From contig CM059427.1 of NCBI GenBank assembly GCA_030390025.1, forward strand, positions 48,422,001 through 48,486,000: a DNA stretch of 64,000 nt, written 5' to 3'. How positions within the stretch are numbered: the stretch's first letter is position 1; the number at the start of each line of letters is the position of its first letter. The translations under genes were made by a program, and so were the position numbers. Positions 1,050 through 62,025 of this stretch are shown piece by piece. The notes beneath the pieces are model-generated. The model was given only the letters and a program-made list of their open reading frames with translations. It had not been told where the DNA came from and searched no databases. This stretch comes from Squalus acanthias. Lineage: Eukaryota.

Positions 1050-1131
1050 TGGTTTCTGGCAAACCTTTCCTATCAGGAGGCACTGTCTGATACTCAGGTG
1101 GCTATTGTTAACATTTTGTCCTCTACTTCTG
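1050..1131 (+). CDS. SLC35F5: SLC35F5 coding exon
   Basis: ttttcAG acceptor; [28 protein letters not shown]; GTAAGT donor; 82 nt. Confidence 0.95.
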
Positions 1132-1312
1132 GTAAGTTGAGTGTTAATAGTCTTACTCTTGTCCATTGCATTGTACTGAATAAGAATTGTGCCACTCATT
1201 TCAGCTAATACAAGGGGGAGTTAGGTTTTGCAGAATTAATGATATTTTGTTTTACTGTGTGCTTGCAAAATCTTACCACATCAGAAAAAAAACATGTTGC
1301 TGTAAAACCAGG

Positions 1313-2844
1313 TCATAGGAACAGGGGTAGGCAATTCAGCCCCTCGAGCCTGTTCCGCCATTCAATTCACGACTGATCTGTACCTCAACTCCAGTTACCT
1401 GCCTCAGCTCAATATCCCTTGATACCCTTACCCAACAAAAATCCATCAGTCTTTGTCTTGAAATTTCAATTGACCCAGCCGCACAGCCTTTTGGGGGAGA
1501 GTGTTCCAGATTTCCACTACTCTTTGTGTGAAAAAGTGCTTCCTGATTTCACTCCTAAATGCCCTGGTTCTAATTTTAAGATTATGCATGCCCCCTTTTT
1601 CTGGATTCCCCCACGAGAGGAAATAGTTTCTCTGTATCTAATCTATCGAATCCCTTTATCATTTTAAATACCTTGATTAGATCACCCCTCAACCTTCTAA
1701 ACGCATGGGAACACAAACTAAGACCGCGATTTTATTAATGGAGGCAGGTTGGGTGCGGGTCAAGTGGTTTCCGGCTTCCAGTCCCACCCCCAGCTGCATT
1801 CGGTCCACAGACGTGATTTTGCCTTGATTGACCTTGTTAAGCCCGCCCTATTAACAGGAAGCTGGTCTGATGACGTCATTTGATGACGCGTCATCTGCCG
1901 GTTTTCTTAAAGGGACCACACACAATTTTATTTTGACAGTTGATTTCTCAGTGTTTGACAGCATTGAGGTGCTGCAAGCACTGACAATCACTGTACAAAG
2001 GTGACCTCTTGCACCCAGGCTCTCCAATGACTCCCTCCATAGGCTGGAATAGATGGCAGCTGCAGGTGAAGTGACAGAAGCGATCTGTCACTGGTGAGAG
2101 AGGTTCTCCCAATGAGGTGGCACTGGACATGGATTTAAAAACTTGTAACCTAAAGAAATGTGTAAATGTATTAAAAATTCAGTACCCAAATTTTCTTTCC
2201 TCTGAGACTCACCATGTGCAACATTGGATCCTTCACACCCCTTCTGCAGCTGTCATCATTCCACAAACATTACAGCAGACTCACAACACGCCACACTTAC
2301 CTGGCGTGGTGTCCGGACGTCGGGAAACCCGAGCCAGAAGTGGCAAAATTCAAAAATAGGCTGACAACTACTGGCAAGTACCTGTTAATAGGCAGGTAAT
2401 TGCCTTTAATCCGCTTCCTGCTGCTAGATGTCGGGTCCATTCGCAAATCAGGGACCCGACACTTGGGGAAAGCTGTTTGGAGGCGGGTTGACAGCGGGAT
2501 TGCAACTCGCCGTCAATCAAAACGATTTTAACCTATGACCGCCTCCCTCTGTGCGCCGTCAAAATTGCGGCCTAAGTTTATGTAACCTGTCCTCATAATT
2601 TAACCTTTTAAGCTCTGGTAAAATTCTGGTGAATCTGCACTCTACACCCTCCAAGGGCAATATAATTGAGGGATGTTGCCCAAAACTGAATGCAGTACTC
2701 TAGATGGGGTCTGACCAAGGCTTTGCAGAACTGAAGCATCACTTCCTCACTTTTGAATTCCAACCCCTTGAGATAAATACCAACATTCCATTAGCCTTTT
2801 TCATTATTTGTTATACCTGCGCACAAGCTTTTAATGATGTGTAC
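1313..2844 (-). mobile_element. Degenerate CR1 LINE, 3' part (interrupted by a MITE and by the provirus; continues 15047-~15530)
   Basis: CR1 tail at 1313-1400; sequence joins across the provirus as gatgt-gtac-atggacacctaaatccc; RT remnant FSDDTKLGG in the 15207-15443 ORF. Confidence 0.75.
1722..2572. mobile_element. PIF/Harbinger-type non-autonomous element
   Basis: TIRs gaccgcgatttt / aaaattgcggcc, flanked by TAA on both sides. Confidence 0.7.
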
Positions 2845-2967
2845 TGCAGAGATTCACGTATCTCTGGTAAACAGGATCGAGTGCAAACCAATATGGTGGG
2901 TATATTGTGTTTAATCGGAGTTTAGGACGAAATATAACACACTAGTAATACAGCAAAAACATACGAC

Positions 2968-4592
2968 CATGACGAGCCAATTACCGCCCCATCAGTCTAC
3001 TCTCATTCATCAGCAAAGTGATGGAAGGTGACATGAATCTTGTCATTAATGGGAAATGACTTATGACATAATACTGGGCGGCCTGCTGGTGGCACTGTCC
3101 AGGGAGAGTATAAATACTCGGGCATGGGCCCAGCTTGCTCAGGACATTCTTTAACAGGAACTAGTGAAGGACAACTAGATCTCCATGTTGTAAAACAGTT
3201 GATTAAAGCTTTGTTTAACGCTTAGACCAAGTGCCGAGTAGTTTTCTTACGTCAGAAGGTATCATCGACAGTGCTATCAAGCGGCACTTACTCACCAATA
3301 ACCTGCTCACTGATGCCCAGTTTGGGTTCTTCCAAGACCACTCCACTCCCGACCTCATTACAGCCTTGGTCCAAACATGGACAAAGGAGCTGAATTCCAG
3401 AGGTGAGGTGAGAGTGACTGCCCTTGACATCAAGGAAGCATTTGACCGAGTCTGGCATCAAGGAGCCCTAGTAAAACTGAAGTCAATGGGAATCAGGGGG
3501 AATACGCTCCACTGGCTGGAGTCATACCTAGCACAAAGGAAGATGGCTGTGGTGGTTGAAGGTCAATCATCACAGCCCCAGGACATCGCTGCAGGAGTTC
3601 CTCAGGGCAGTGTCCTAGGCCCAACCATCTTCAGCTGCTTCATCAATGACCTTAACTCCAACATAAGGTCAGAAATGGGGATGTTCGCTGATGACTGCAC
3701 AGTGTTCAGCGCCATTCACAACTCCACAGATAATGAAGCAGTTCATGCCCACATGCAACAAGACCTGGACGACGTTCAGGCTTGGGCTGATAAGTGGCAG
3801 GCAACGTTCGCATTATTCACAGAAGTGCCAGGCAATGACTATCTCCAACAAGCGAGTGTCTAACCACCTCCCCTTGACATTCAATGGCATTATCATCGCC
3901 GAATCCCCCACTATCAACATCCTGGGGGTCACCATTAACCAGAAACTTAACTGGACCAGCCACATAAATACTATGGCAACAAGAGCAGGTCAGAGGCTAG
4001 GTATTCTGCGGCGAGTGTCTCACCTCCTGACTCCCCAAAGCCTTTCCACCATCTACAAGGCACAAGTAAGGAGTGTGATGGAATACTCTCCACATGCCTG
4101 GATGAGTGCAGCTCCAACAACACTCGAGAAGCTTGACACCATCCAGGACAAAGCAGCCCGCTTGATTGGCACCCCATCCACCACCTTAAACATTCACTCC
4201 CTCCACCACCGGCGTACCATGGCTGCAGTGTGTACCATCTACAAGATGCACTGCAGCAACTCGCCAAGGCTTCTTCGGCAGCACCTCCCAAACCCGTGAC
4301 CTCTTTCACCTAGAAGGACAAGGGCAGCAGGTGCATGGGAACTCCACCGCCTCCAAGTTCCCCTCCAAGTCACACACCATCCTGACTTAGAAGTATATCG
4401 CCAATCCTTCGTCGTCGCTGGGTCAAAATCCTGGAACTCCCTACCTAACAGCACTGTGGGAGTACCCTCACCACACGGACTGCAGCAGTTCAAGAAGGCG
4501 GCTCACCACCACCTTCTCGAGGGCAACTAGGGATGGGCAATAAATGCTGGCATTGCCAGTGACGCCCTGATCTCATAAACAAATTTTTTAAA
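2968..4592 (+). mobile_element. 5'-truncated CR1-clade LINE (type sharing its tail with SINE3/DeuSINE-type SINEs) inserted in the 3' LTR
   Basis: NYRPISLL, ALDIKEAFDRVW, GVPQGSVLGP and FADD motifs; tail caccaccttctc...gggcaataaatgctggc; about 6 bp of LTR lost at the site. Confidence 0.9.
3029..3254 (+). mobile_element. 226-bp solo LTR nested in the LINE
   Basis: TGAC...GTCA ends, 5-bp TSD GAAGG (3024-3028 and 3255-3259), internal TATAAAT and ATTAAA. Confidence 0.8.
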
Positions 4593-4670
4593 AAGCAGCT
4601 AGGTACCGGTCCCGATCGGACAGACGGCTGGCATGCGTGAACAGTTCTCTGGCTTCTGGTCCCTCCGCCT

Positions 4671-4713
<43 letters not shown>

Positions 4714-5593
4714 TCCGATGGTGAGCATGAGATCACTCTCAAAAGAGCGTTCGACCAGCCCAACTTCTCTTTGCAACTTCTGTTCGGCTCTCCCCTCCAC
4801 CGTCTGTGGGCAAGCCCTTGGGGTGTCACTTTTTATTCTCTTTTTAGGGGTGGGCCTGAGGCCAAGTTATTGACAAGACCATTTAACCTATAGAGGTTCT
4901 TCTAAAACCTCATCAACCAATGACAGCTCAAGTTCTTTGTCCTGGTTCTTGGATGAAAGCTCTCCCCAAAAGAGGGTCTCATTACTTCATCCAATTTATC
5001 TTTCTTGTTTTTACATTTTGAAGGTTCCTCCATTGGAATCCATCTTATCTCTCTTGACTCTCTCCTCCTTAACCCAGCAAGTACAAGGTCCGGCCCCGGC
5101 CCTGTCCCTCTTAATCATGGCCCCAGCCAGAGCTGTCGCACATTAGCCAGTCACTAGCTCACCTTCATCTAGCAAATGGCCCATTCTAAGATGGATACCT
5201 TAGCCTCCTCAAATTCCTTTCATTCTATGTCTTTTCCTAATTAACTTTTAATTATCTTCACAAGCAGTTCTGCTAAACAAACTCCAAATTCTATCTGTGG
5301 AGATTATAATATGGTTATTAGTAATAATGAAAGAAACATAGGTTGGGCCTTCACTGGCCAAATTAAAGATACATTAACAAAGTCAAAACCCTAACTTACA
5401 AACAACAGATAACTAGCCTGGCAGGGCCATCCTATGGGCCCCGTGTGGAATGTTTATGTTTCACCTAATCTAACTGATTAAAAAGACTGTCTCAAATTCT
5501 AATGCAAGCTTTCCAGGAAAATGAAACTTATCATTTAAACACAGTATTATTCGTGTAGCCATATACATTTTTAGGCACCCCTAGTTTCTGACA

Positions 5594-5604
5594 GTCCCCA
5601 CCTT
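5594..5604 (-). promoter_or_regulatory. Polypurine tract
   Basis: AAGGTGGGGAC immediately before the TGTCAG start of the 3' LTR on the minus strand. Confidence 0.7.
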
Positions 5605-5908
5605 GAGAGGGAGAAAAACTCTATTTCGACCTCTCATTTACGAACCTCTACCAACCGTGCCAACTCTAAATTATTGGTTCGACGGTTCAATCGACGTGTC
5701 AAGCATCTCAAATAACATGACATTATAATTAGAACTATTAAGACCAGACATTGAGCAATTACTAGGGCTGCTGATAGCATTCTTGCCCAGGGATGCTGGC
5801 TGGCATTATAAGCTACTTCCCACCACCTGTGGTCCCCTAACTTGCTTATTGCTTTCTCAATTTAGGCATTGTCTTGCTGCATTTTAACCAAATGTTTCTG
5901 CGAGGTAC

Positions 5909-6225
5909 TACACGGTGGCATAGTGGTTAGCACTGTTGCCTCACAGCGCCAGGGACCCGGGTTCGAATCCGGCCTCGGGTGACTGTCTGTGTGGAGTTTT
6001 CACATTCTCCCCGTGTCTGCGTGGGTTTCCTCCGGGTGCTCCGGTTTCCTCCCACAGTCCAAAGATGTGCGGGTTAGGTTGATTTGGCTATGATAAAAAA
6101 ATTGACCCTTAGTGTTAGAGGGGGATTAAATACGTGGGGTTATGTGGATAGGGTGGGATATGTGTCGGTGCAGGCTCGATGGGCCGAAATGGCCTCTATC
6201 TGCACTGTGGGGATTCTGTGATTCT
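5909..6225 (+). mobile_element. HE1-like V-SINE inserted in env
   Basis: tRNA head (ggtggcatagtggttagcac...ggttcgaatcc), V-core, CR1-derived tail ending gattct repeats. Confidence 0.9.
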
Positions 6226-6829
6226 TTCAATGATAGACTTTAAACTGAGGGATAGTGGTGGAATTGGATGTCCAAATTTTATGGGATTCTTATGGGAATC
6301 AAATGGGCGTTTCCTACTGTAGTCATTTCAAGAGGTCTTAAGCAGAAGGTTGGCCGTCTGACCTGACAGATGTCTAGCCCGTGGGTATATTGGGTAGCAG
6401 AGGTGGTCACACAATAACGTCCCTGGCTTAGATAACTGACCAGAGTGTGGTTATTGCCCCATGTTTGTACTTGGATAGTGCAAGTAGGTGATCCTTCATC
6501 TACAGAGATCCCACATGCTGGTATCCCAGGCTCAAGACTGTCACATCTACACATCCATGATCCTTTATTCTTAGTGCAACAATCCAAATTTTGGTCATGC
6601 CCTACTTAATCAAGTAGTGTGGATATTCTGCATACTGTTTGTGTACCTTCCCTTTCATAGATCCTATTGATTCGACCTTGAACACTTCCCACTTATTTGT
6701 CTTGTTCAATCGGGGCAACCATAGGACTACTGGTATGAGAATGCTTTTGGGGTCTAGATAATAATTATTCTCCCCACCTGGGCATGGTAATTTGGCATTG
6801 TAAGCTAACCCATGTTTCCTAGTAGTACA

Positions 6830-6889
6830 AAATTGAGAGGTCGCACAACACCAGGTTATAGTCCAACAGTTTTATTTGAAATCACAAGC
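6830..6889. mobile_element. Short Penelope-derived fragment in env
   Basis: Matches the arm at 27141-27200; 15-bp duplication tttcctagtagtaca (6815-6829 and 6890-6904). Confidence 0.75.
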
Positions 6890-8262
6890 TTTCCTAGTAG
6901 TACACCATGGTTCAGTCTTGCTAAACCATTTCTCTAAATGTCTGTCATTCACAAAGTTGGGTATCTGATTATTTTCGATGTCCGTCAGACCTTTCTGTAC
7001 CTGATCCAGTAGGAAACTCCCATACATAGCACAAGTGATACCCTTAGAAAACTGGTCCATACTTCCTTCAGATTCTTTGATTATCTCATTAACCTTGTCC
7101 TGAATCTCTTGCATTGTGTACCATTTCTAAGGTTGTTTTTAGTGCTTCTTGCAATTCTTGAACTTGGTCTGAATCTCCCTTATTTATTTTGGTTAAAATT
7201 CCCTTCAATTGTCCCCTCATAGCCTCATCATGTTCCCACATAGATTATGTGTCTATTCTATTTCATGCTGCTGTGCCTGCCATGGCTCCTATTCCTAGCC
7301 ATTCTCCTAACCCTCGCTTCCTTCTCGACTTAGTCGTACCGTTTTCTCCACCTACCACTGGTTCGTACCATTGTCCATCAATTGGGGGCCAAGATTCGTC
7401 ACTGTCTTTTCCCGCATTCCTTTCTACAAAATCCTTAACTATTTGTCTCACCAGATAACTGTAAAATAGCTCATGTGCGTGGTTGCACAGGCCCTTTGGC
7501 ATTTGGACTGCTGAAAGATTAAATATCATTGAGACAATCTCCTATCTAACATCATTATACAGGCTCTCATGGGTTCGTGTTACTACTAAACCATTATCGG
7601 GACCTTCTGTTATTTTGGGACAGTTTTCTTTCTTGTTACTGGTTTTATTTACCGTGATCTCCTCTCTTGTGTTATTACAACTACCCCTCCACTACTAACA
7701 CACCATCCCGCACAGCATTGTGGGTTATTTCCCGTATTATTTTCTTGCCACTTGGCTTTCCACTGGTATTCACCCTCATGTCTCGGCCAAAAGGACGGCC
7801 AATTCAAATCATAGTTCTTAATGTCCCAGTTTTCGCTCTTTACTTCATAGGGTATTCCCATCAGTCCAGTTTTAACCAATGCTGTGGATACCTTCCGGTA
7901 CCATCCTGGGGCTTTGCCTTCCAGTGCCTCTGGGTTGTATCCCTCTGTGCTGCAATGTAGTTGCACCCGAACTCCATTTCCTTCAGGAACCAAAAGGTGG
8001 TACTTCCAAGTGGTAACCGTCGGTAGACGTACCACACATCCCTCGCATATGAATTTTATTTCACGTATTTCCTTCAAAACTCAACATGATATACTCTCGC
8101 CGTTGGTATTGTAGTATTCCACCCAGTTCGTAGAGATTGGAGAGGTGTTCGAGTGTCTTATGAATATGATGACCCCCAGCAGGAGGGTTCGATGACTGAT
8201 GCAGCGTGCGACCTGTTTCATTATCATTCTTAACTGGTTCTGTAAGGCAAAATATGCAATAT

Positions 8263-11200
8263 TTATTCTTTCACAGTTTTCAACTGATTGATATGGTACC
8301 ATTTAGCCATCTTGGCTCTCCCCTTTTTCCCAGGGAATTGCACCAGATAAACCGAAGGACTGGCCCTGTCAATAACCGGGAAGGGACCATTCCACTTTGG
8401 TTCGAAGCAATGTTGCTTCTTCCCATAGTTTAGTACCATTACAACATCTCCCACTTGATACTCAAATGCTCGGACCTTCTTGTCGAAGTATTTCTTTTCC
8501 TGGTTTTTTAATTTGCCTGTTTGTGTAGCTACAAACATGTTCGTTTGTTCTATGTTCTCTACCACCATTTCAAGCCATTTTTGGTTGGCAATTCCCTGTA
8601 CTAAGGGTGTGGCTGAAGGGGTTAACAGATGGGCTGGCACTCGCATTAGTCGCCCGGTCATAGCCTGGTAGGGTGAGATACCCGTTGTGCTATGCGGGGT
8701 GGATCTAATAGCCATTAGACACATTGGCAACATACTGGACCATTTGGTGGGGTGATCTGCACAAAAAATTTTTAACATAGTTTTCAGAGTTCGGTTTCCT
8801 CTTTCCACCACTCCAGATGATTGTGGGTGATGGGAAATGTGAAGTTTATGCGAGATACCCATTATCCGTTGTAATTCGGTAAAAATTTGGGTGGTAAAGT
8901 GTGATCACTATCAACTTGAATTGGCACTCCCCACCTGCAGATCACTTCACCCAATAAAAGGCGAGCTGGTGTCAATGCAGTGTTTGTTTTACATGGAAAA
9001 GCCTCCATCCGTTTAGTAAATTTATCAACTATAACTAGACAATACCGCAAGCCAGAAGGTCCTGCAGGTAGAGGCCCTATGAAGTCAATTTGAAGGTGGG
9101 TCCGCGGCCCATCAGGAGGAGGGGGACTGCGCAACAGTGCCCGATTAGTGTGGGCACTTGGATTGTGCTGTAAACAGGGCAGACAACGATTCACCCTGAG
9201 TGACATCTATGATGCAATCGGGAAACCATGCAAATTTGATTAGTTTCTGAACAGTTGCATCAGCTGAATAGTGTCCTCCTACCAGGTGTGAGTGCAGGAG
9301 ATCAAAAATTTTGGGTGCCATGGATGGGGGAACACAGACAACCGGGAGATCAAACAATAGCCACTGCAAGCGGGGGTTGTACATTAACAGGGGAGCAGTT
9401 TCCCCAGACTGATCCGGAGCCAATTGTGTGTCCACAGCCCATGGAGTGGGCGGAGGTAACGGACATCCATGCTGATGCCATGCAATAACAACTGCATAGG
9501 GGGAATAACTGGACTGGAGGGAAGGGAGGTCGATGTCCCCACTTGGATACTCGAGACTGATCTTAAGGGAGGGGTAGGGGCTTGCCAGAGGTCACCGTTA
9601 ACAGCGGCATCCTTGGCAGCACGATCTGCCTGTGAGTTACCCTGGGTATGTACATCTGAAGAACGTGAGTGGGACTTTACCTTGCCAACATCGACAGGGG
9701 CTGATCGTGAATTTAAAGAGTCCCAAAGGGAAGCAAAGAGGTCTGCATGGAGCAGGGTCTTACCAGCGACCGTACAAAAATTATTCCTAGCCTACAGCGG
9801 TAAAGATAACAAAGTGTTAATCGCATAGGCACGATCTGACCAGACATTAACCAGTATTTCATGAGTAACTTGGATTCCTGTCACCAGGGCTGCAACTTCA
9901 GCATATTGGGCAGAGTGGGGAATGCATTTATACTTAAGTTCTCGGTCAGGCATGACTACTGCAAATCCAGTAAGGGGCTTTCCGTCCCTGTGATAGGATG
10001 ACCCATCAATGTAGACGTTCTGGGTGTCACTTAGCGGAGTAAGAGAGACGGGGTAACGGTCGAACTCCAGTGGTGGAAAGGGGCACTCATGGCTTCCCCC
10101 CTCGTACAGTAGGAGCTGAGGTAGTAGAGTTGTCTGCCTTGGCGTTATTTCCAAATCTCTGAGTTAACAGAAGTGTCCAGTGACTGAGTCAGGCAGAGGA
10201 GACCAAAGTGTCCCCTGGTTTAAGTAGAAGATTCAAAGGGGAGTGGGGGCTATGTATGATTGTTTTGTTCAGCCCAGTAATAAATGTGAAGTGTTTGACT
10301 GTCCAAAAAGTGGCTAGCAGATGTCGCTCAAACACAGTGAAATTCTTTTCCACGCCATTCAAAATACGGGAGGCGAATGCGATTGGCATAAGTTTACCCT
10401 GTACCTCTTGGCACAGAACAGCAGCAAGACTCTGATCGGTGGATCCCACCTCCAGGTAGAAAGGCTTATCTCGGTCAGAGCTTGTCAGGCATGTGGCTTG
10501 CATAACAGCAGTTTTAAGGAGGGATACAGCCGTTGTATGTTCGGTGGTCCAGTCACAGGCCACAGCGTCCTCTTCAACCTTTAACAGTTCATATAATGGT
10601 TTGGCTAGCTCCGCAAATCTGGGAATAAATGAGCGCTGGTATCCCACTCGGCCCAGGAAGGAGCGAAGTGCGGTTTTGGATGCGGGCAGTGGTAAACACT
10701 GAATCACCTCAATCTTATGCTGGTCAGGGCTGAGTCCCTTTTGTCCCACAGAAACCCCTAAAAATGTCACTTCTGGCTGTAACAGTTGTACCTTTTTGGG
10801 GTTAATTTTCAGCCCAGCTTTTAGAAGAAGGTCTAATAGCTCTTCCATTAATTTAATATGAGTCTTTTTGTCAGGCGTTGCAAGCAAAAGGTCATCAACA
10901 TACTGCAGCAGGCAGTCGGGTCTCGAAAAAGGTTTCAGTGACTGAGCCATCCGTTTGTGGAATATAGTTGGGGCGTTGTGAAAGCCTTGAGGTAAACATG
11001 TCCAAGTATAACGATAGCAAAATACTGCGGATGCTGGAAATCCGAAATAACAACAGAAAACGCTGGAAAAACTCAGCAGGCCAGGCAGCATCCGTGGAGA
11101 GAGAAACAGAGTTAACGTTTCAGGTCGAAAGGTCTTCGACCTGAAACGTTAACTCTGTTTCTCTCTCCACAGATGCTGCCTGGCCTGCTGAGGGTTTCCA

Positions 11201-12144
11201 GCGTTTTCTGTTATGTCCAAGTATAACTTTGATCTTCAAAAGTGAAGGCAAATTTGTACTGATCCTCTGACTTAACAGGGATACTCCAGAAGCCGTTTGA
11301 AATGTCAAAGGTGGAGAAGTAGCAGCTACCTGGTGGAATCTGGGACAGGAGAGTGGGGGTCTCCCGAACAACAGGGGCGCAAGCTGGGGTTACCGAATTA
11401 AGCTTGCGATAATCAATTGTTAGACGCCAGCTATCGTCTAGTTTCTTAACTGGCCAGGTTGGAGAATTAGTGGTAAAAGTGCCAGTGCGGATAACACCCT
11501 GCTTTAACAATGAATCGATAGTAGACCGAACATAAGGTTTACTCTCAGCTGGAATGGAATACTGCTTAACAGGAGGGTGGGAGGGTCCATTAATCTCCTC
11601 ATCTCCCGACATCCTACCACAATCATGTTTGGACTTAGCAAAAACCTCTGAAAATTAATGTATTAACCATGGGGGTCTTCAATCCCGGGAAGGGCGAAAT
11701 CCTCGATTTTTTAATTGCATATACCGAATGGGCATCTGAAATAGGTGTCGATGGTCCATCATTAAAGTGCCACCAAAGACAATCATTAGCGTAGTCGAGG
11801 ACAGCACAGTGTTTATGAAGCGTGTCACTTCCGAGGATACCTTTCTGGTCATGGGTGGCCATATATATAGGAGAGGGGTTATCGACGGAATTCCCATCGA
11901 TGGACAAGACTGTGGAGCTCAATCCCTGATTAACTATCTGAGTAGAAGCATTAAAGCCAGAGAGGTTTAGGGCGGTGCCAGAATGGGAAAAGGGAGCAGG
12001 GTCATGTAAAATAGTCACGGCAGAACCAGAATCCACAAGCATAACATGGCGGCGGCCTCCATGATCAGTGGCCCGGACAAAGGGTCGTCCGTCCTCCCCG
12101 TACCAGACAGGAGAAGACGTGGTCACCGTGGAGGCCTCTGACCG
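8263..12144 (-). pseudogene. pol: Proviral pol: protease, RT, RNase H-like tether, RNase H, integrase (frameshifted)
   Basis: LVDSGS...ILGSD (PR); DISNGFW, LPQGF, YVDD (RT); PIAFASR (tether); VYIDGSS...SAQYAE...WSD (RH); H-H-CxxC, QIDF, DSD, VERGN, GPF (IN). Confidence 0.93.
11013..11212. mobile_element. Palindromic Penelope-derived insertion in RT
   Basis: About 78-bp inverted arms (11052-11129 and 11135-11212); 15-bp TSD atgtccaagtataac. Confidence 0.85.
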
Positions 12145-13826
12145 TCACTGGGGCCGTGAGTCTGGGAGCGCATCTCCACTGCGAGAAACAGCCAAAACGT
12201 TTTGCCCCCCCACCTGACTGTGCTTCATGGCCTCAACTACCGCCGAAAGGTGTTCAAGCTGCTGCTGCACAGCGTTCAAATCAGACCCGTTACCTTCACG
12301 GATTGGGGGTTGGTAGCATAGGCCATTATTTGGACGTTGACTATCGCTTATAACAGATTACGTGGTGTTTGTCTCCCGACTGGGGAGGGGTTTGTGGAGT
12401 CAGAGGACCCTCCACCGCCGACACTTTGGACTCAGTAGGGGTGAGGGACGATTTAACTTGGTCCCAAGCTCGAATGCAAGCATCCTTCAGATCAGCCCAC
12501 GGGGTTCCCTGATGAACAGTAATACCAAGAGTGTCCCTTACGGGGGGTAAGAGAGCATCAATGAATGTCAGCTTAAATCCCTCCGTGTCGCAAAACTCTT
12601 GACCATTACAGTTTTTCTGGGACTGGTTGTACAAATCATACAATCGATTTGCAAAGGCCAGAGGATGCTCGTCAGCCTTTTGTCGGGTGTCCCCAGCCGC
12701 ACGGGTGAAATTAACTGCGTCCATGCCCAAACGGGAACAAACTGAATCCATGACGTCCCACCACCCCTTACTTTTATCAGAGATTTCCCGTGAAAGTGAT
12801 AACTTGAGTTCCCGTGAAATGCATGACAACAGAACTTGTTTTAAGTCTGTCAACTCTAACTCAGGGTGACAGTGACGGAACGTACCCCAATCACTTGTTA
12901 GGGCGACTGGGTTCGTCCCCCAGTTTATTGGCCCCAATTCTTTGGCTATTGCTTTGCACACTGCCGGGGTCAAACTTCTACTGGTAGTAGTAGTTACTTC
13001 CACATTTGGGGGCAGGTTGTAGGCTACAGAGGAGGTATCATTATCGAATTCATCATCCGAGGGTGTAGGGTCACCAAATTGGGTGATAGTAGTGACTATA
13101 TTAACCTGCTTGGTTTCTACCGGGGCAGTTTGTCCTGGATAGGCAGGCGGAGGCGCAGACGGTGAGGGACTATTTTGGCAGATGGGGCTATTATTGCACT
13201 GGGCTTTTCTTGTTCAATCATCCCAGTTAATACCGGGATCCCCTGGTTTAAGGCGACTAATGGCCGCAACAGCAGCCATTTGTCTCCCCAGCTTTCCCTT
13301 CAATTCCATAATTTTTAATTCGCAGTGAGTATGGTCGGTGCTCACCAGAGGGGGTTTCTCAAGTAATTCTCTCAAGGCTCCCCTGGCGTCCTCAAGTTGC
13401 GAGATCAGGGATTAATTTTTTATTTTTAAAGCCTTGTTATCCTCAAACACCTGATGGTGGCGTCTTGAGGCAAGTCATGCCTCATCTGCCAAGGCTTGTT
13501 CTTGATGGAGAAGTGTACAGACTGTGGCATGTCGGCCTTGCCAGTCCTGTAAGTCTCTTTCAAGTTGTGCATTTCTCTCTTTCAGGAGTACAACTTCACC
13601 TCCCAAGCGAACAGCACACAAGTGGGCTGCGTAAGCCAGCCTATTTCTGGCTTCCTTAACTTTGCATTTCTTCGCACCCACCTGCTATCTCTCCCCAAGT
13701 CTCAGAGTAACTCTTCTCACTCTTCTCATCACCCTGCACTATTCCGATTACTGCTTGGGCCCCCGGAGCCCCTAACTTATCCGAAAGACTGTTCGCAACC
13801 TTTTCTCTCAAATACTCATCTGCCAT
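12145..13826 (-). pseudogene. gag: Proviral gag (frameshifted)
   Basis: ATG at 13826 about 100 nt after the PBS; coiled-coil-like N-half; PSAPPPAY; capsid-like ORF 12341-13003 with MHR-like RQKADEHPLAFANRL; TGA at 12145-12147. Confidence 0.82.
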
Positions 13827-13919
13827 TTTGTTTTTACTTTACAACCCGATAAGAACACCTAGTACCATTATAGACCGAACCCATCCTCAACTCGTTTTGG
13901 CCACAACAACCTTGTTGCA

Positions 13920-13938
13920 CTCCTGGCTCGACTCGCCA
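13920..13938 (-). promoter_or_regulatory. Primer-binding site, tRNA-Arg-like
   Basis: TGGCGAGTCGAGCCAGGAG versus TGGCGAGCCAGCCAGGAG expected for tRNA-Arg(ACG); starts 3 nt after the 5' LTR. Confidence 0.75.
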
Positions 13939-13941
13939 ATT

Positions 13942-15042
13942 TGTAGAGATTCACGTATCTCTGGTAAATAGGATCGAGTGCAAACCAATATGGTGGGTGT
14001 ATTGTGTTTAATCGGAGTTTAGGACGGAATATAACACACTAGTAATACAGCAAAAACATACGACTGGGACAAGCAGCTGGTACCGGTCCCGATCGGACAG
14101 ACGGCTGGCATGCGTGAACAGTTCTCTGGCTTCTGGCCTCTCTCTCTCTTTCACTCTGGAACCTCTGATGGTGAGCATGGGATCACTCTCAAAAGAGTGT
14201 TCGACCAGCCCAACTTCTCTTTGCAACTTCTGTTCGGCTCTCCCCTCCACCGTCTGTGGGCAAGCCCTTGGGGTGTCACTTTTATTCTCTTTTTAGGGGT
14301 GGGCCTGAGGCCAAGTTATTGACAAGATCATTTAACCTATAGAGGTTCCTCTAAAACTTCATCAACCAATGACAGCTCAAGTTCTTTGTCCTGGTTCTTG
14401 GATGAAAGCCCTCCCCAAAAGAGGGTCTCATTACTTCATCCAATTTATCTTTCTTGTTTTTACATTTTGAAGGTTCCTCCATTGGAATCCATCTTATTTC
14501 TCTTGACTCTATCCTCCTTAACCCAGCAAGTACAAGGCCCGGCCCTGTCCTGTCCCTCTTAATCATGGCCCCAGCCAGAGCTGTCGCACATTAGCCAGTC
14601 ACTTTCTCACCTTCATCTAGCAAATGGCCCATCCTAAGATGGATACCTTAGCCTCCTCAAATTCCTTTCATTCTATGTCTTTTCCTAATTAACTTTTAAT
14701 TATCTTCACAAGCAGTTCTGCTAAACAAACTCCAAATTCTATCTGTGGCGATTATAATGTGGTTATTAGTAATAATGAAAGAAACATAGGTTGGGCCTTC
14801 ACTGGCCAAATTAAAGATACATTAACAAAGTCAAAAACCTAACTTACAAACAACAGATAACTAGCCTGGCAGGGCCATCCTATGGGCCCCTGTGTGGAAT
14901 GTTTATGTTTCACCTAATCTAACTGATTAAAAAGACTGTCTCAAATTCTAATGCAAGCTTTCCAGGAAAACGAAACTTATCATTTAAACACAGTATTATT
15001 CGTGTAGCCATATACATTTTTAGGCACCCCTAGTTTCTAACA
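13942..15042 (-). repeat. Proviral 5' LTR (1101 bp)
   Basis: Minus strand TGTTAG...TCTACA; AATAAA at 14281-14286 (minus); direct repeat of the 3' LTR. Confidence 0.95.
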
Positions 15043-16724
15043 GTACATGGACACCTAAATCCCTTTGCTCCTCCATATTACCCTTTGCTCCTCCATCTCT
15101 CACCATTAAGAAAATACTCTGATTTAACTTTCTCAGATCCAAAGAGGATGATCTCACAATTCTCACCCCCCACCCATTGAACTCCATCTGCCATATATTT
15201 TCCCACTCACTTAGTCTGTCTTATGGCCCTTTGTAACCTCCTGCTCACACCTACACAACTTACCATGCCTCCTAACTTAGTGTCATCTGAAAACCTGGGT
15301 ATACAACTCTCTTCATTCATCGAAGTCATTAATATATATTCTAAAAAGCTGAGGCCCCTGTACAGACCCCTGGGGAGCACCACTTGACACATCCTGCCAA
15401 TCAGAGAACATTCTCTGTCTCCTACCTCCCAACCAATTACCAACCCATGTCACAAGGCTACCTCCAATTCCGTTCACTCATTTTTACTAATAATCACTTG
15501 TGCATAACCATATCAAATTCCTTCCAGCAGTCCTCCTCCCCTGCTCAGGCCTTGGGTTGAAATTGCAGATTGGGTCCTGATGACATCATCAGAATCAATC
15601 TGCATATTTAAAGTAGAACCCCACTTCCTGCCGTTGTCCTGCTGTCCTGCTCAAAAGAGCAGGTTAATATGTGGACACAGTGGGAAGGAAGCGGGATTGG
15701 AGGGGGTGGGTGACTCGCGTTATTTTAACTGTTTCTGCCAGGTGGGGACAGTTAAAATTGGGCCATTGTTTTAGAAAACTGTCCTGAATACATTCTAGAA
15801 ATTCATTACTTGAGCTGTTCTGCTTCTCTCAGTCTATGTGAAAATTAAAATCTTCCATTATAACCATATTGCTTTTGCTACATGCGCCTCTGATCTCCGT
15901 ATTTATACATTTCCCCCTCCCCCACTACAACACTACTATCGGGAGGTCTGTAGACAACTCCATCAATGTAAAAACTAAAATATCTTTTACCTCTAAGAGG
16001 ATTCAGTCTCTACTCAACTTCTATGCTGTGCAGAGTATTTTGTTTTCTTCTACTGTCAGCGGGTTTGAGGTAGTTACCAGCCCTAGCTGCTTAACTTTAT
16101 CACAATGAAATATATTCATATAGGACACACGGAATGAGTAAAGACCATTTCTTACATCAAGCTGCTCCTTCCACACACACTCTGCAATCTACCCATCATG
16201 GATCCTAGCTAATTCATTAAATCACCCAAGGAAAGGATCTGCAAACACCTGATCCTCCCTCCACCATTACAGAATATGGGTCTAACCTTGCATCCTAATC
16301 TTGTTGTCTTCCTTGGCATGGCATTTCCATCATCCTAACAGTTCAGCAACCATCATGCTCCACACATTTGATCACCTCTACCTGCACTGAACTTTTTAGC
16401 CCTCAAGTACGAGTCTGTGCTGCAAAACCATAATTTTACACAAATCAGACCATGTAGGTATGTAGATTGGCAATGTCACCCTGTAGTAGTACATCAAGCT
16501 ATTCTGAAGTTGGTGTGAAGACACGTGCAGAGACACAATTACACCCAAATCTTTGTTGTATGTGTGATTGATGCTGGTAACTAAAATGAAATATGACAGC
16601 AAAGATGCATATATTTCTTGGGCAACAACACTTGCTAAAGTTACCATAGTTTCTAGTGTAATCACACTAACTTAATAATATGCTGAATTCCTTGGCGATA
16701 AAAGGAAACACTTCAAATTTGAAT

Positions 16725-16940: not shown

Positions 16941-18088
16941 ACCACTATTACGCCTTAATAATTGACATTATAACCACTAACAATTTGTCACATACCGTAT
17001 TTAATTTTTTTAATCATCACTTTAACAGCAATTGTGAAACAGTGCTTTTACTATCCCACAGAACTGCTTTTTGAAATCCTATTTGAAGGAAATTGCAGTT
17101 GTAAGTTCCTGCCCACCTGGTATTTAAACTCTTTCTAATGTTACAGTGACAAATGTAATTGTCTGCTCACGAGAAGGACCAAATGGGTCCAGCTGGGATG
17201 TGGGATCAATTCCTCAATTATATTTTAAATGTACCCTGAGGAGAGATGATGGTACAATTAACAATAAGAATCTATAAAGAAATGCTGTTCTTACTAAAAA
17301 CAAAAAACACTTCTTTATGGTAAAAATGAGTTCAGTGCCAAAAATGAGTTCAGTGCCAAAAATGACTTCTAACAGTGCCACCTAGTGTTATTCAATTATT
17401 GCTACCTGAACAAATTAGTTGGTCATAAAAGTTGTAAAGACATAAATCGTCCAAAGATTAAATACACATTGAAAATGACAAAATTAATCCATAAATGATG
17501 TGAGACTGGTAAAGGATACAAACCAATTCGTAAGATGTGATTTATTTGAAAATTTGTTTCAGAAATAAAATATTGTTGACTCAATTTCAGTATTTTCTAT
17601 CTATATTCATTCCTGTTGCCTGAATAATTTTAGCTGTTAACTATTAATTGAATATTTTTTGTCTAGATACATCTTTTTAGATACCTATAAAAAGAAGTGA
17701 GCATTATAAAACAGCTCAACCACCTGCTAACACCCTCTGCAACTCTAACCACCTAATCCCACTTACCCCCATCCTTCCTGGCTCCCACCTGCTTAACCGG
17801 CCCAGCATGCCTACACTTTCCATGTCCTTGACCCACAAACACCACAATCAGAGATTCACTGGTAATTGTGTGTTAACCTGTAATTATAATTCACATATTG
17901 GCCTTTATAAAAATTGAGTGTTATTCCTACTCTTTTAAATAAGATTCAGACATGTTTAGACTTCTTAATCTAATAACTGATTGATTGTGTTAAAATACAT
18001 TCCCAAGAAATCTATAAACACACACTTCTATCATTTTACATTTCCAAACTAATTTGCTGGTTGGTTGAATATTTTTTTTCTTGTACAG

Positions 18089-18176
18089 GTCTCTTCACCC
18101 TACTTCTAGCTGCAATGTTTCCTAGCAACAGTGGAGACAGATTCACATTATCCAAATTGTTAGCTGTAATTTTAAG
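18089..18176 (+). CDS. SLC35F5: SLC35F5 coding exon
   Basis: tacAG acceptor; (G)[29 protein letters not shown]; GTATGT donor. Confidence 0.95.
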
Positions 18177-18366
18177 GTATGTACTGATGTATCAGTAAAA
18201 TTTGAACCATATAAGTTTTGTTCAGTTACATGATTTGATTGTAGTTAGTGCCTTTTACTCAATGAAAGTGTTTCCAGTATTTTTCCTACAATACGGCTTT
18301 ATTCTCATCTTTATAGGAGTAACCCCGTAACACACAATGAACATACTTTTGTTTTTGTTGTTTTAG

Positions 18367-24695: not shown

Positions 24696-25184
24696 ACCAT
24701 GTTTAAAATTTTAGACCAGCCTAAGGTGCATGCTGTGTAAGCTTCTTTTTAGTAATTAAATTAATGAAAATTGTACTTAATGAAACTGCATACAATTCCC
24801 TGATTTCCTTGTGGCGAGTAGCCACCTTGGCCATAGAAAATGGTCATTGAAGTTGAGGCAATTTCCACCCTTTGAGGAAATTACTTGTTAAAATGTGAAC
24901 TGTAAAAATTCTGATGGGTAGGATTTTTCATAGTGTAATTTTTCATTGGGTTTTTCCTTGCTGAATTTTCATTTGCCAAAGTTTTTAGTCCGAGCAAACC
25001 ATAGCAGATGTTAGATTAATGAAGTCCAATGTAATGGCTCCCTCCATCCGATTCCCTAGCATATTGAAGCAGGATAAGATAGTCTCTTGGAGATTGCAGT
25101 CATAGGCCTCCATAGCAGCAGCGTGAGCATTGACAAGATATTCTCACTGTTTGCAATATCTCTGCTGCTGGGACTCTGCTGTAG

Positions 25185-25860
25185 ATCCCTGAAGGCAGCA
25201 GGACAGGTAGATAAGGTGGTTAAAAAGACATATGGGATACTTGCCTTCATTAGCCGAGGCATAGAATATAAGAGCAGGGAGGTTATGATGGAGCTGTACA
25301 AAACGCTTGTTAGGCCACAGCTGGAATACTGTGTGCAGTTCTGGTCGCCACACTATAGGAAGGATGTGATTGCATTGAAGAGGGTGCAGAGGAGATTCAC
25401 CAGGATGTTACCTGGGCTGGAGCGCTTCAGCTATGAAGAGAGACTGGACAGGCTGGGGTTGTTTTCCTTAGAGCGGAGAAGGCTGAGGGGGGACCTGATT
25501 GAGGTGTACAAAATTATGAGGGGCATAGATAGGGTAGATAGAAAGGAACTTTTCCCCTTAGTAGAGGGGTCAATAACCAGGGGGCATCATTTCAAGGTAA
25601 GGGGCAGGAGGTTTAGAGGGGATTTGAGGAAAAACTTTTTCACCCAGGGGGTGGTTGGAATCTGGAACTCACTGCCTGAAAGGGTGGTAGAGGCAGGAAC
25701 CCTCACAACATTCAAGAAGCATTTAGATGAGCACTTGAAATGCCATTGCATACAAGGCTACGGACCAAGTGCTGGAAAATGGGATTAGAATAGACAGGGC
25801 TTGATGGCCGGCGCGGACACGATGGGCTGAAGGGCCTCTTTCTGTGCTGTATAAATCTAT
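25185..25860 (+). mobile_element. CR1 LINE 3' end (young)
   Basis: Open frame LYKTLVRPQLEYCVQFWSP...RRLRGDLIEVYKI followed by the CR1 3' UTR. Confidence 0.9.
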
Positions 25861-27141
25861 GACTCACCATCACCTTCTCAAGGGCAACTAGGGATGGGCA
25901 ATAAATGCTGGCCTTGCCAGCGATGCCCACATCCCATAAGCAAATAAAAAAAAACATATCTCCAGCTTTTTCTTCTCAAGTCCTTGAATGTCTCTGCCAT
26001 CCAGCTCCATGTGTTCTCACCCATCACTCCCTCTTCAACTTCCTTCAGTCCAGCTTCCGCCCAGCTCATTGTTTCAAGACTGCCCTAATCATAGTCACCA
26101 GTGACATTCTTTGTGACTGTGACCATAATGCACTATCCCTTCTTGTACTTTTCCGACAGTCGCCAGCAGGTGTTGCAGGATATTTCGCACACTCTTAAGT
26201 GACCAAATAAACCATTGATAATTAGATAGGAGCCTTCTTTTAAATGCAGGCCTCATGAGGTTCAAATCCAAGGACTGTTCAGCTGAGGAGGACTCAGACA
26301 GCCTTCCAGCCTACAGGTTGCTGCTCCTCCACTGCCTTCATCATGCATTCCTACTAACATATGCTCTGTGATTCAAACAGTGCACCCTCCTCAAACCCCC
26401 AGAGTGCTGCGAGCTACTGAATTAATTATGTGGTACAGGGACATGTTCTTGGGGAGTACTTTCCGCATATGTTGAAGGCTGCAAGACACTCCTTCAAACA
26501 TTATTGATGTGACTAGTCACTCAATTCAAAGTTACTTAATTCCATTTATCTGATAATTCAATTTTTAGCTCCAAATTTCCACTTTTCTGTGTTATTTGGA
26601 TTGTTTATTTAAAATTATTATATTGTTCATTTTTCGTGCAAAGATTGGCTGAAATATTGGGAGTAGACTATATAACCTTTTGGCCTGGAAAAATCCTCTG
26701 GCGGAAATTCTACAGAACTGCAGCAGGGTGGCTTCCAACGCTGACCCCAGTATGTTTTTCAAGGGCTTCTGGTCATATTTCTGCCAGTGCCAGAAAGCCT
26801 ACCAAAGGTGGGGAGGAGAAGGAATATTGCATTGCAAACCTTGAGCGCCTTCAGCAGTAGAACCTGGTTGACTGCTTTCTGGGGCTGCTAAAGAAGTAAA
26901 GGAGTTTTTTTAAATTGGTGTGTTGGCTAAGTCCAGTTATTTCCCTGGTTTAAAATTAAATCCTCTACCCCCATAGCAATTTTGGACACCAGGAACTCAT
27001 CAGTCTTCAGGTGTTCAACATTGCTATTGTATTCAGGACAGAAAATACAGAACGTGATGTTTCCCGCTATTAACATGTAATTTCCATATGGCCTCCCAGT
27101 TTGGGCAGGCATTTTCAATATCCACTGTCACTTCTGAAGGT

Positions 27142-27331
27142 GAGAAGTCGCACAACACCAGGTTATAGTCCAACAGCTTTATTTGAAATCACAAGCTTTC
27201 GGAGCGCTGCTCCTTCGTCAGGTCACCTGACGAAGGAGCAGCGCTCCGAAAGCTTGTGATTTCAAATAAAGCTGTTGGACTATAACCTGGTGTTGTGCGA
27301 CTTCTCACATTTGTCCACCCCAGTCCAACTG
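27142..27331. mobile_element. Penelope-derived perfect palindrome with hammerhead cores
   Basis: 83-bp perfect arms (27141-27223 and 27225-27307); 12-bp duplication acttctgaaggt; CTGACGA...GAAA core. Confidence 0.85.
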
Positions 27332-44684: not shown

Positions 44685-45910
44685 TTGTACCTAGCACAAA
44701 GGAGGATGGTTGTGGTGGTTGAAGGTCAATCATCACAGCCCCAGGACATCGCTGCAGGAGTTCCTCAGGGCAGTGTCCTAGGCCCAACCATCTTCAGCTG
44801 CTTCATCAATAACCTTCCCTCCAACATAAGGTCAGAAATGGGATGTTCGCTGATGACTGCACAGTGTTCAGCGCCATTCACAACTCCTCAGATAATGAAG
44901 CAGTCCATGCCCGCATGCAACAAGACCAGGACGACATTCAGGCTTGGGCTGATAAGCCGCACAAGTGCCAGGCAATGACTATCTCTAACAAGCGAGAGTC
45001 TAACCACCGCCCCTTGACATTCAACGGCATTGCCATCGCCGAATTCTCCCACCATCAACATCCTGGGGGTCACCACTGACCAGAAACTTAACTGGACCAG
45101 CCATATAAATACTGTGGCAATAAGAGCGGGTCAGAGGCTAGGTATTCTGCGACGAGTGTCTCACCTCCCGACTCCCCAAAGCCTTTCCACCATCTACAAG
45201 GCACAAGTAAGGAGTGTGATGGAATACTCTCCACTTGCCTGGACGAGTGCAGCTCCAACAACACTCAAGAAGCTTGACACCATCCAGGACAAAGCAGCCC
45301 GCTTGATTGGCACCCCATCCACCACCTTAAACATTCACTCCCTCCACCACTGGCATACTGTGGCTGCAGTGTGTACCATCTACAAGATGCACTGCAGCAA
45401 CTCGCCAAGGCTTCTTCGGCAGCACCTCCCAAACCTGCGACCTCTTCCACCTAGAAGGACAAGGGCAGCAGGTGCATGGGATCACCACCACCTCCAAGTT
45501 CCCCTCCAAGTCACACACCATCCCGACTTAGAAGTATATCGCCGATCCTTCATCATCGCTGGGTCAAAATCCTGGAACTCCCTCCCTAACAGCACTGTGG
45601 GAGCGCACGTCAACCCAAGCACCCCACCCACCCGCCCCTTCATCTACCGTCTGCCCCACCTGTGACAGAGACTGTAGGTCCCGCATTGGACTCATCAGTC
45701 ACCTGCGAACTCATTTTTAATGAGGAAGCTTGTCATCCTCGGTTCCGAGGGACTGCCTAAGAAGAAGGAAGAAGAGAGTACCTTCACCACACGGACTGCA
45801 GCAGTTCAAGAAGGCGGCTCACCACCACCTTCTCAAGGGCAACTAGGGATGGGCAATAAATGCTGGCCTTGCCAGCGACGTCCACATTCCCATAAATGAA
45901 TTAAAAAAAA
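44685..45910 (+). mobile_element. 5'-truncated CR1-clade LINE (family of 2968-4592) with a nested RTE 3' fragment (~45605-45775)
   Basis: Closely similar to 3525-4590; insert encodes CPTCDRDCRSRIGLISHLRTH and ends in (gaa)n. Confidence 0.88.
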
Positions 45911-46864: not shown

Positions 46865-46975
46865 TCACAGTTCTGATGAAAGGTCATCGACCTGAAACGT
46901 CAACTCTCCATCTCTCTCCACGGATGCTGCCTGGCCTGCTGAGTTTTTCCAGCGTTTTCTGTTGTTATTCCTTAT
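46865..46975 (+). mobile_element. Penelope pLTR-derived fragment
   Basis: Same family as the right arm of 11013-11212. Confidence 0.8.
46869..46905 (+). ncRNA. Minimal type I hammerhead ribozyme motif
   Basis: agtt-CTGATGA-a-aggtc-atc-gacct-GAAAC-GTC-aact: stems I and II pair, palindromic ACGT stem III, GUC triplet. Confidence 0.7.
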
Positions 46976-47386
46976 TTTGTAATGTCTGATTATTGTGCAG
47001 GAAGATTCAGTGTTCTCAAGCATCCAGCATTGTGCTGTGCTCAAAAGGAGCACAGGTCAGATATGGCAGCATTTTAAATACTGTACAACATCATCCCTTA
47101 TTTTCCTTTTCCTCTAATGATACAGGCTCAATGCTGAGTCTCTCATCAAGGCTGAATCAGAATTATCCTTGCTTCTGTCCTCTGAACACGCTCCCTTCAG
47201 GTGCAGCTCAACACTGGGAACGTGGGATCACTGAATTTACCCTATGAGATATAAAATCTAAAGAAAATGCTAAGACATTAAAGGGAATAATAAGTATCTT
47301 CACTTTGTACCATTTGTTGATTAGTTTAAACTAGAAATATTTGCTCTGGATTTCACTTTTTCTTTATTTTGCCTTTCTTTATACAG

Positions 47387-57985: not shown

Positions 57986-58122
57986 AGAACAGGTATAAGA
58001 TTGTTGTGTGTTAATGGGGATTTACCATTTGCAAGATTGGTAACTAGCTGCATGTATGAAAATCCATTACATTTTCTGTGCAAAACCCCACATTGTGTAA
58101 CCATGAAAGATGTGTAACCATA

Positions 58123-59557
58123 ACCACTATTCAAAAAAGGTGGTAGAGAGAAAACAGGGAATTATAAGCCTGACATCGGTAGTGGGGAAAATGCTAGAGT
58201 CCATTATAAAAGATGTAATAGCAGAGCACTTGGAAAACAGTGACAGGATCGGACAGAGTCAACATGGATTTACAAAAGGTAAATCATGCTTGACTAATCT
58301 ACTGGAATTTTTTGAGGATGTAACTGGTAGAATAGATAAGGGAGAACCAGTGGATGTGGTGTATTTGGACTTTCAGAAGGCTTTCGATAAGGTCCCGCAT
58401 AAGAGATTAGCGTGTAAAGTTAAGGCACATGGGATTGGGGGCAAGGTATTGACTTGGATAAAGAACTGGTTGACAGACAGAAAGCAAAGAGTTGGAATAA
58501 ATGGGTCTTTTTCCAAGTGGCAGGCAGTGACTAGTGGTGTACCGCAGGGATCGGTCCTAGGACCCCAGCTATTCACAATATATATTAATGATCTAGACGA
58601 GGGAATTGGATGTAATATCTCCAAGTTTGCAGACGACACAAAGCTGGGTGGGAGTGTGTGCCGTGAGGAGGATGCCAAGAAACTCCAGTATGATTTGGAC
58701 AGGTTGGGTGATTGGGCAGAAGCATGGCAGATGCAATATAATGTGGATAAATGCGAGGTTATCCACTTTGGTGTCAAAAACAGGAAGGCAGATTATTATC
58801 TGAATAGCAATAGATTGGGAGAAGGGAAAGTGCAATGAGACCTGGGTGTCCTTGTGCACCAGTCACTGAAGGTAAGCATGCAGGTGCAGCAGGCGGTTAA
58901 GAAGGCAAATGGTATGTTGGCCTTCGTAGCGAAAGGGTTCGAGTACAGGAACAAGGATGTCTTGCTGCAGTTGTACAGGGCCTTGGTGAGACCACATCTT
59001 GAGTATTGTGTGCAGTTTTGGTCGCCTTATCTGAGGAAAGATGTTCTTGCCATGGAGGGAGTGCAGCAAAGATTCACCAGGCTGATACCTGGGATGGCAG
59101 GAATGACATATGAGGAGAGATTGGGTCGATTGGGCTTATACTCGCTGGAGTTTAGAAGAATGAGAGGGGATCTCATTGAAACTTATAAAATTCTAACAGG
59201 ACTGGACAGACTAGATGCAGGAAGGATGTTCCCGATGGCCGGGGAGTCCAGAACCAGGGGTCACAGTCTAAGGATAAGGGGTAAGCCATTTAGGACTGAG
59301 ATGAGGAGGAATTTCTTCACCCAGAGAGTGGTGAACCTGTGGAATTCTCTACCACAGAAGGCAGTAGAGGCCAATTTATTAAATATGTTCAAGAAGGAGT
59401 TAGATATATTTCTTAAAGCTAAAGGGATCAAGGGATATGGAGCGAAGGCAGGGACAGAGTACTGAATTTGGATGATCAGCCATGATCTCATTGAATGGCG
59501 GAGCAGGCTCGAGGGGCTGAATGGCCTGCTCCTGCTCCTATCTTCTATGTTTCTATG
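58123..59557 (+). mobile_element. Young 5'-truncated CR1 LINE
   Basis: Long RT frames (YLDFQKAFDKVPH, KFADDTKLGG) and tail ending tctatgtttctatg. Confidence 0.92.
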
Positions 59558-61449: not shown

Positions 61450-61539
61450 TATCTCTCACAGTCTTGGACAAAGTGAAATGAAAGGTTTGCAATGTTATAG
61501 GCAATCACTCCTTCACTTTCAGCCTCCTCCCACACAATT

Positions 61540-62025
61540 CATAGACTAGTACAGCACAGAAGGAGGCCCATCGAGTCTGCGCCGGCTCTTTCGAAGAGCA
61601 ATCCAGTTAGTCCCACTCCCCCGCTCTTTCCCCATTTTCCTGCAATTTTTTTCTCCTTCAAGTATTTATCCAATTCCCTTTTGAAGGCTAGTGTTGAATC
61701 TGTATCCACCACCCTATCAGACAGTGCATTCCAAATCCTAACCACTCGTTGTATAAAAAAGCTTTTCCTCATGTCGCCTCTGGTTCTTTTACTAATCACC
61801 TTAAATCTGTGCCCTCTCATTATCGAACCTTCAGCCATTAGAAACAGTTTCTCTTTATTTACTCTATCTAAATCCTTCATGATTTTAAAAACCTCCATCA
61901 AATCTCCTCTTAGCTTTCTCTGCTCCAAGGAGAACAACCCCAGCTTCTCTAGTCTATCCACGTAACTGAAGCCCCTCATCCCTGGAACCATTCTTGTAAA
62001 TCTCTTCTGTACTCTCTCCAAAGCA
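61540..62025 (-). mobile_element. CR1 LINE 3' end
   Basis: ERVQKRFTRMVPG...RGDLMEVFKIM on the minus strand. Confidence 0.88.

Follow-up and report, generated by a model that had tools for sequence, protein, structure and literature searches.

A dead shark provirus of a deep-branching retroviral group with a predicted F-type envelope

The endogenous retrovirus (ERV) on the minus strand of a 64,000-nucleotide window of the Squalus acanthias genome (assembly GCA_030390025.1, contig CM059427.1, positions 48,422,001 to 48,486,000; "the window" is this whole stretch) is very probably a dead full-length provirus of a deep group of Retroviridae. This group likely includes CmiERV lineage I of the elephant shark, and the envelope protein (Env) of the provirus is predicted to be an F-type fusogen rather than a gamma-type one. 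A first-pass annotation of the window had described a complete, lokiretrovirus-like provirus in an SLC35F5 intron.

Placement of the polymerase

Lokiretroviruses (Loki) are defined by the position of their reverse transcriptase (RT), in a clade that is sister to all other retroviruses (PMC7947760), and the RT studied here is placed by its sequence in Retroviridae, outside Loki. Because the RT of the window copy is interrupted, a natural unbroken paralog of the same genome (L008) was used for the trees; the window's own unbroken downstream RT piece is 93% identical to L008 and groups with it. From 160 proteins the 20 with partial RT were removed, and hand-chosen subsets of 53, 36 and 39 were analysed. 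The references for Loki (between 4 and 7 database proteins of teleost type, assigned to Loki by their motifs) and for snakehead retrovirus (SnRV) had been picked among database matches by motifs equal to published rows. In the RT trees Loki formed a clade (100/100), while the provirus family stood on the Retroviridae side (100/99) as sister to a Xenopus tropicalis Pol (99-100/99). The same frog supplied the database protein nearest to the L008 RT (64% identity), followed by other frogs and coelacanth (50-53%). Holding the query and Loki together was rejected in the approximately unbiased (AU) test (p = 0.0001), and a quick integrase tree split Loki and Gypsy from the query with an SH-aLRT (approximate likelihood ratio test) support of 96.

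The motifs agree with the trees. The provirus pol carries DISNGFW, LPQGF, YVDD and GPF, and its LPQG stands against PFG in the published Loki rows examined (PMC7947760 supplement); PFG as a mark of Loki is our own observation from these rows rather than a published criterion, and it also occurs in 7 Loki-type database proteins used as references. Pfam domains follow one another in the order RVT_1, RT_RNaseH (tether), RNase_H, Integrase_H2C2, rve and the integrase C-terminal domain, so the tether plus RNase H reported by the first-pass annotation is present. Its view of the element as deep-branching and neither gamma- nor betaretroviral also holds. Membership in Ty3/Gypsy (Metaviridae) is ruled out by the RT trees and by the tether plus RNase H. 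A search of longer proteins matched Gypsy and Loki only, and a scan of viral contigs for relatives found none.

Relation to described elements

CmiERV lineage I was described as SnRV-related, or "SnRV-like" (Han 2015, PMC4422223). CmiERV scaffold 2 and the provirus family are identical at 94/138 RT residues (~68%, a hand count from the PMC4422223 supplement). The likeness extends to the start of the long terminal repeat (LTR), a near-identical junction of polypurine tract (PPT) and LTR, the PQ-stop end of gag, a CCHC Gag, similar RNase H and integrase ends and an LTR divergence of 0.033, compared with ~0.03 here. The shared PPT-LTR junction, gag end and RT identity indicate that the lineage has already been described. 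On these sequence comparisons the provirus family and CmiERV lineage I are likely members of one deep group, which also comprises elements of frogs and coelacanth besides those of sharks. The two differ in Env, which is gamma-type with an immunosuppressive domain (ISD) and CX6CC in CmiERV-I (PMC4422223) and F-type here. New relative to the described lineage are the F-type Env and the primer-binding site (PBS) for tRNA-Arg. The PBS of CmiERV-I is tRNA-Ser-like, unlike that of the provirus family. Of the two placements that the first-pass annotation had set against its own proposal, RT within Ty3/Gypsy is not found, while membership in a described shark ERV family is found in large part through CmiERV-I, the family and the envelope being different. 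In the same genome, loci L137-L198 represent several more families of the deep group, whose RT shares 44-80% identity with that of the query family.

With SnRV and the SnRV-like clade (clade Huo; PMC12193657, PMC6001957) the provirus shares the RT motifs DISNGFW, LPQGFH and LQYVDD, and the hosts of that clade are likewise found among fish, amphibians and reptiles. SnRV has a tRNA-Arg PBS like the provirus family. It differs in that RT identity is only 33-50% and integrase identity 29%, it is not sister in the trees, and its accessory open reading frames have no counterpart seen in the provirus.

Envelope: sequence and predicted fold

An unbroken paralogous env encodes 784 amino acids with a furin site, a fusion peptide, long helices and a transmembrane region (TM); ISD and CX6CC were looked for in it and not found. 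A model of this Env was built from 44 sequences. Its best Foldseek match was the F protein of human parainfluenza virus 3 (hPIV3; E 7e-8), and only F proteins were among the 40 matches listed. In VIA, the model aligned to respiratory syncytial virus (RSV) F with Z 9.4 (277 residues aligned, root-mean-square deviation (rmsd) 5.6) and to foamy Env with Z 7.7 (250 aligned, rmsd 6.8). A PDB sequence search with Env returned coiled-coil matches only. We propose that Env likely has the F-type fold of paramyxo- and pneumoviruses, as predicted by the model. For the N-terminal region the Atlas gave no usable match; hints of an Ig-like head come from a UniRef name and one V-set match at E 0.045.

Among predicted structures in BFVD, the walleye epsilonretrovirus Envs Q9WHI8 and A4GTG3 match the Env model (E 2.5e-10 and 3e-8), a hint from models that they may be F-like as well.

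Envelope history of the group

Sixteen related proviruses of the genome were picked by RT alone and their downstream env was then read. F-type env homology was present in 15/16, as nine long stretches and six short 3' remnants, while a gamma-type TM or ISD was found downstream in 0/16, with a single protein as gamma-type bait. The six short remnants follow directly after integrase, as expected of env-deleted amplifying copies. These counts point to the F-type Env as the group's own envelope, and it was likely the original one, judging from the sequences; the gamma-type Env of CmiERV-I would then be a later replacement. An Env profile search gave 52 homologs, 18 of which were looked up, and the named hosts were frogs, coelacanth, ray, sharks and owls. 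In Strix owls the homologs are weak (E 1.3e-6) and several per genome (P0201, P0247-P0250).

Alternative readings

That the provirus is a chondrichthyan lokiretrovirus, as first proposed, we now consider highly improbable; the resemblance to Loki in Env and integrase is real. The likeness (Wang and Han 2021, PMC7947760) comprises gag-pol-env between LTRs, a tether plus RNase H (common to all retroviruses and not diagnostic), an F-related Env with an RXKR site, seen here on the unbroken paralog, and the integrase. After the close group the integrase scores highest to Loki (142-144 bits, against 55-82 bits for SnRV, foamy and gammaretroviruses), which explains the first impression. The LPQG motif, the trees and the AU test exclude this reading, and the family also differs from Loki in its short protease-RT spacer and in the smc gene, which was not seen. 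Because foamy Env has an F-like fold too (PMC11468914), and predicted Envs of walleye epsilonretroviruses matched the Env model, an F-like env does not define lokiretroviruses and is no marker for them. A Loki RT probe of this genome found nothing above 43% among 149 loci scored of 16,814 candidates, which is not proof of absence; LPQG was present in 29 of the top 30 loci and PFG in none. The suggested extension of the Loki host range to cartilaginous fish is therefore not borne out, whereas the accompanying statement that Loki had not been reported from them was correct, as 0/6 cartilaginous fish genomes were positive in the published screen (PMC7947760 supplement). A lokiretroviral integrase is expected to group with Loki and CGIN1; on the donor of CGIN1 nothing was found in PMC9447858.

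It is possible, but in our view doubtful, that the group is a slow-evolving sister or stem of the foamy viruses (perhaps the CmiFLERV/XtrFLERV cluster) that has a simple genome and keeps an ancestral F-type Env. Its RT falls with that of foamy viruses with support of 86/76 and 86/96, the best PDB sequence match is foamy Pol, the Env model aligns to foamy Env, and foamy viruses share the 4-bp target-site duplication (TSD). On the other side, the foamy branch measures 2.7 changes per site and its support is not starred. Foamy viruses also have a Gag without CCHC, a Pol made independently of Gag and accessory genes after env, whereas the provirus family has a CCHC knuckle, an in-frame gag-pol stop with likely read-through, a tRNA-Arg PBS unlike theirs and no accessory genes; its env ends ~40 bp from the PPT, leaving no space for bel genes before the 3' LTR. 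Foamy Env shares the class Ib (F-like) fusogen core, beside the weak affinity in RT, but carries its extra region between the subunits rather than N-terminal to the F core as here (PMC11468914). The pairing of shark and X. tropicalis elements recalls CmiFLERV/XtrFLERV (PMC5512871). For the envelope, it is unlikely that the shark clade gained its F-type Env from Loki or another virus and that the gamma-type Env was original, a view suggested by the gamma-type Env of CmiERV-I (PMC4422223) and by frequent env swaps in anamniote ERVs (bioRxiv 2021.11.23.469661). The F-type Env stands behind two distant RT subgroups of this genome. Homologous Env proteins, found by searches with Env, come from five genera of frogs as well as from coelacanth, a ray and a number of sharks, and 0/18 named or looked-up Env matches were labelled as a Loki-host teleost.

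Several points weigh against our own reading of a deep-group provirus with an F-type Env. The Env model has a mean pLDDT (predicted local distance difference test) of 59 and a pTM (predicted template modelling score) of 0.42; its core is better than its N-terminus, and modelling of the N-terminal ~230 residues gave no fold (pLDDT 29). The helical background reaches Z 8.2, so the value for RSV F is barely higher, and Pfam Fusion_gly stays below cut-off (E 0.036; 4/44 members). The absence of gamma-type TM or ISD was judged with one bait protein. CmiERV-I was compared by eye from the paper's sequence, outside any tree (PMC4422223). The trees are without rows for ERV-L, Odin, the foamy-like ERVs of fish, the Loki of amphibians and coelacanth, alpha- and betaretroviruses and lentiviruses, and their groups were labelled by motif or by the name of the source. 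Han's grouping with SnRV was not recovered (AU p = 0.015 for query, Xenopus and SnRV; SnRV has a long branch), the foamy branch that the deep group joins is very long, and the integrase scores favour Loki. Finally, the stem downstream of the gag-pol TGA is weak (z = -1.64).

Proposed life cycle and implications

Under our reading, the progenitor would have primed reverse transcription with tRNA-Arg, produced Gag-Pol through likely read-through of a UGA-CGG stop and packaged its RNA with a Gag of one CCHC knuckle. Integration would have created a 4-bp duplication, and cell entry may have used a furin-cleaved class I fusogen whose extra N-terminal Env region of ~230 residues may bind the receptor. 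The family would then have multiplied, leaving many solo LTRs and no fewer than 40 internal copies, and the window copy would have landed antisense in an intron ~7-70 million years (My) ago, depending on the rate, before it decayed.

The read-through step has support in the paralogs. A TGA at the end of gag, mostly followed by CGG, is in frame with the protease in 29/29 paralogous loci; this conservation points to read-through, which on sequence grounds is the likely route to Gag-Pol. The single CCHC knuckle of Gag is found in the paralogs and in the aligned stretch of the window copy.

The origin of the retroviral Env was not settled by Wang and Han, who kept four scenarios (PMC7947760). An F-type Env that accompanies a Pol of Retroviridae proper, in addition to the F-like Envs of Loki and foamy viruses, speaks for an ancestral envelope of the F-like kind. 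We tentatively speculate that a widespread and little-described group of simple retroviruses, with hosts among sharks, frogs, coelacanth and turtles, branches at the base of Retroviridae, possibly as sister to foamy viruses, and keeps the ancestral F-type Env. In this scenario the first retroviral Env would have been F-like and the gamma-type would have come later, and galeomorph sharks would have domesticated one env, the first F-type Env to be captured. The window copy is otherwise an ordinary dead provirus; its weight lies in the envelope history and in the env of three orders of sharks that is a candidate for domestication.

Candidate domesticated shark env

An intact F-type env of 739-754 amino acids shows 85-88% identity between species of three orders of sharks. 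It was found in Scyliorhinus torazame (P0122), Heterodontus francisci (P0253) and Chiloscyllium punctatum (P0123), with the accessions XP_072333160.1, XP_067889054.1 and GCC29952.1. From this conservation we regard it as a candidate domesticated gene. When a more stringent search of S. acanthias was made, the 61 candidates that it scored included only broken, multi-copy relatives, ~55-80% identical. A literature search of incomplete coverage found no report of this conserved env, of an F-type Env in the group or of Loki in sharks. The published screens (10.64898/2026.05.06.723177 and bioRxiv 2021.11.23.469661) are limited to gamma- or beta-type Env, and shark env screens that require an ISD (10.64898/2026.05.06.723177) would miss the whole F-type class, including the conserved intact gene.

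Provirus anatomy and insertion site

Both LTRs, a 4-bp TSD, PBS, PPT and gag-pol-env, all claimed in the first pass, were located (Table 1). "Complete" is apt in the sense that every part is there, but the provirus is not intact and all its genes are broken. The matching blocks of the two LTRs are 96.7% and 94.3% identical with gaps counted. Apart from a single mismatch and a single additional base, the PBS is complementary to the 3' terminus of tRNA-Arg(ACG), for which two genes were found in the same genome, and the exact tRNA-Arg form occurs in 4/30 gag loci of the genome. A 4-bp TSD flanks 16 of the 18 solo LTRs of the family (30 LTR loci examined), and it is exact in three of four other two-LTR copies.

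Host exons on the plus strand lie on either side of the minus-strand provirus, which is thus intronic and antisense, as had been claimed. The host gene is putatively SLC35F5, named from ten motifs of which five matched exon-like stretches. Atlas leads were EamA-family only, with scores below 0.9, and the Pfam SLC35F profile had no match in the window. The locus is likely the intron of a transporter gene.

Table 1 Features of the provirus, its inserts and the flanking host exons, in window positions
Feature	Position	Strand	Remarks
Provirus, all parts present	2845-15042	-	LTRs, TSD, PBS, PPT, gag-pro-pol-env
5' LTR, 1101 bp, TG...CA	13942..15042	-	LTR comparison
3' LTR, interrupted by LINE-derived insert (LINE, long interspersed nuclear element)	2845..5593	-	LTR comparison
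TSD GTAC, upstream copy	15043..15046	.	
TSD GTAC, downstream copy	2841..2844	.	
PBS, tRNA-Arg(ACG)-like, slightly degenerate	13920..13938	-	
PPT	5594..5604	-	Directly inside 3' LTR edge 5593
gag, broken	12145..13826	-	Start codon inferred; ends in in-frame TGA
gag-pol TGA then CGG, protease in frame	12145..12147	-	Likely read-through stop
pro-pol, in 7 pieces: protease, RT (LPQG, YVDD), tether, RNase H, integrase with GPF	8263..12144	-	
env, broken: furin site RRKR, fusion peptide, heptad repeats, TM	5637..8302	-	F-like fold predicted from unbroken paralog
Host exon before provirus	1050..1135	+	Ends approximate; putative SLC35F5, by motifs
Host exon after provirus	18088..18178	+	Ends approximate; putative SLC35F5, by motifs
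LINE-derived insert in 3' LTR, ~1.6 kb	2968..4592 (approximate)	+	RT fragment 3219-4299; 92% to copy at 44688-45603
Palindromic ~200-bp insert in RT, 15-bp flanking duplication	11013..11212	.	Absent in 27/27 other loci spanning the site
60-bp insert in env, 15-bp duplication	6830..6889	.	Absent in 15/15 other loci that cover the position, some of which overlap
SINE-like insert in env (SINE, short interspersed nuclear element)	5900..6221	+	Second copy 469-719; absent in 18/18 other spanning loci, some overlap

Decay, copy number and age

In the window copy, pol is recovered by tblastn as seven pieces in shifting frames and env as six pieces with several stops. Four later inserts interrupt the provirus, one in the 3' LTR and three internal, and the three internal inserts are private to this copy. 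A pol probe of the genome gave 206 candidates; 40 of these were scored, so that at least 40 internal loci with 91-100% identity are present, and an LTR probe gave 2,589 candidates, of which 40 were scored; the copy numbers of the family are lower bounds. The two LTRs differ by 0.027 over 971 sites and 0.057 over 129, ~3% overall, and the distance in four other family copies is 0.017-0.031. With rates of 2.2e-9 and 2.2e-10 per site per year, both as used in PMC4422223, the insertion is about 7-70 My old, depending on the rate. Contigs from four runs of related organisms, examined for sharing of the insertion, were mostly repeats and included 0 bridging junctions.

Near-identical family copies are clustered in threes to fours at C5:52.22-52.27 Mb and C4:65.39-65.55 Mb and are probably tandem or segmental duplicates. 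The insert in RT is a short palindromic non-autonomous element with 78-nt arms that are 96% complementary, and related pieces lie at 46878-46977. The 60-bp insert in env matches an inverted pair at 27141-27314 and is probably a truncated retroposon end. Other introns of the window contain LINE RT fragments at 25078-25788, 45018-45665, 58107-59465 and 61539-62090.

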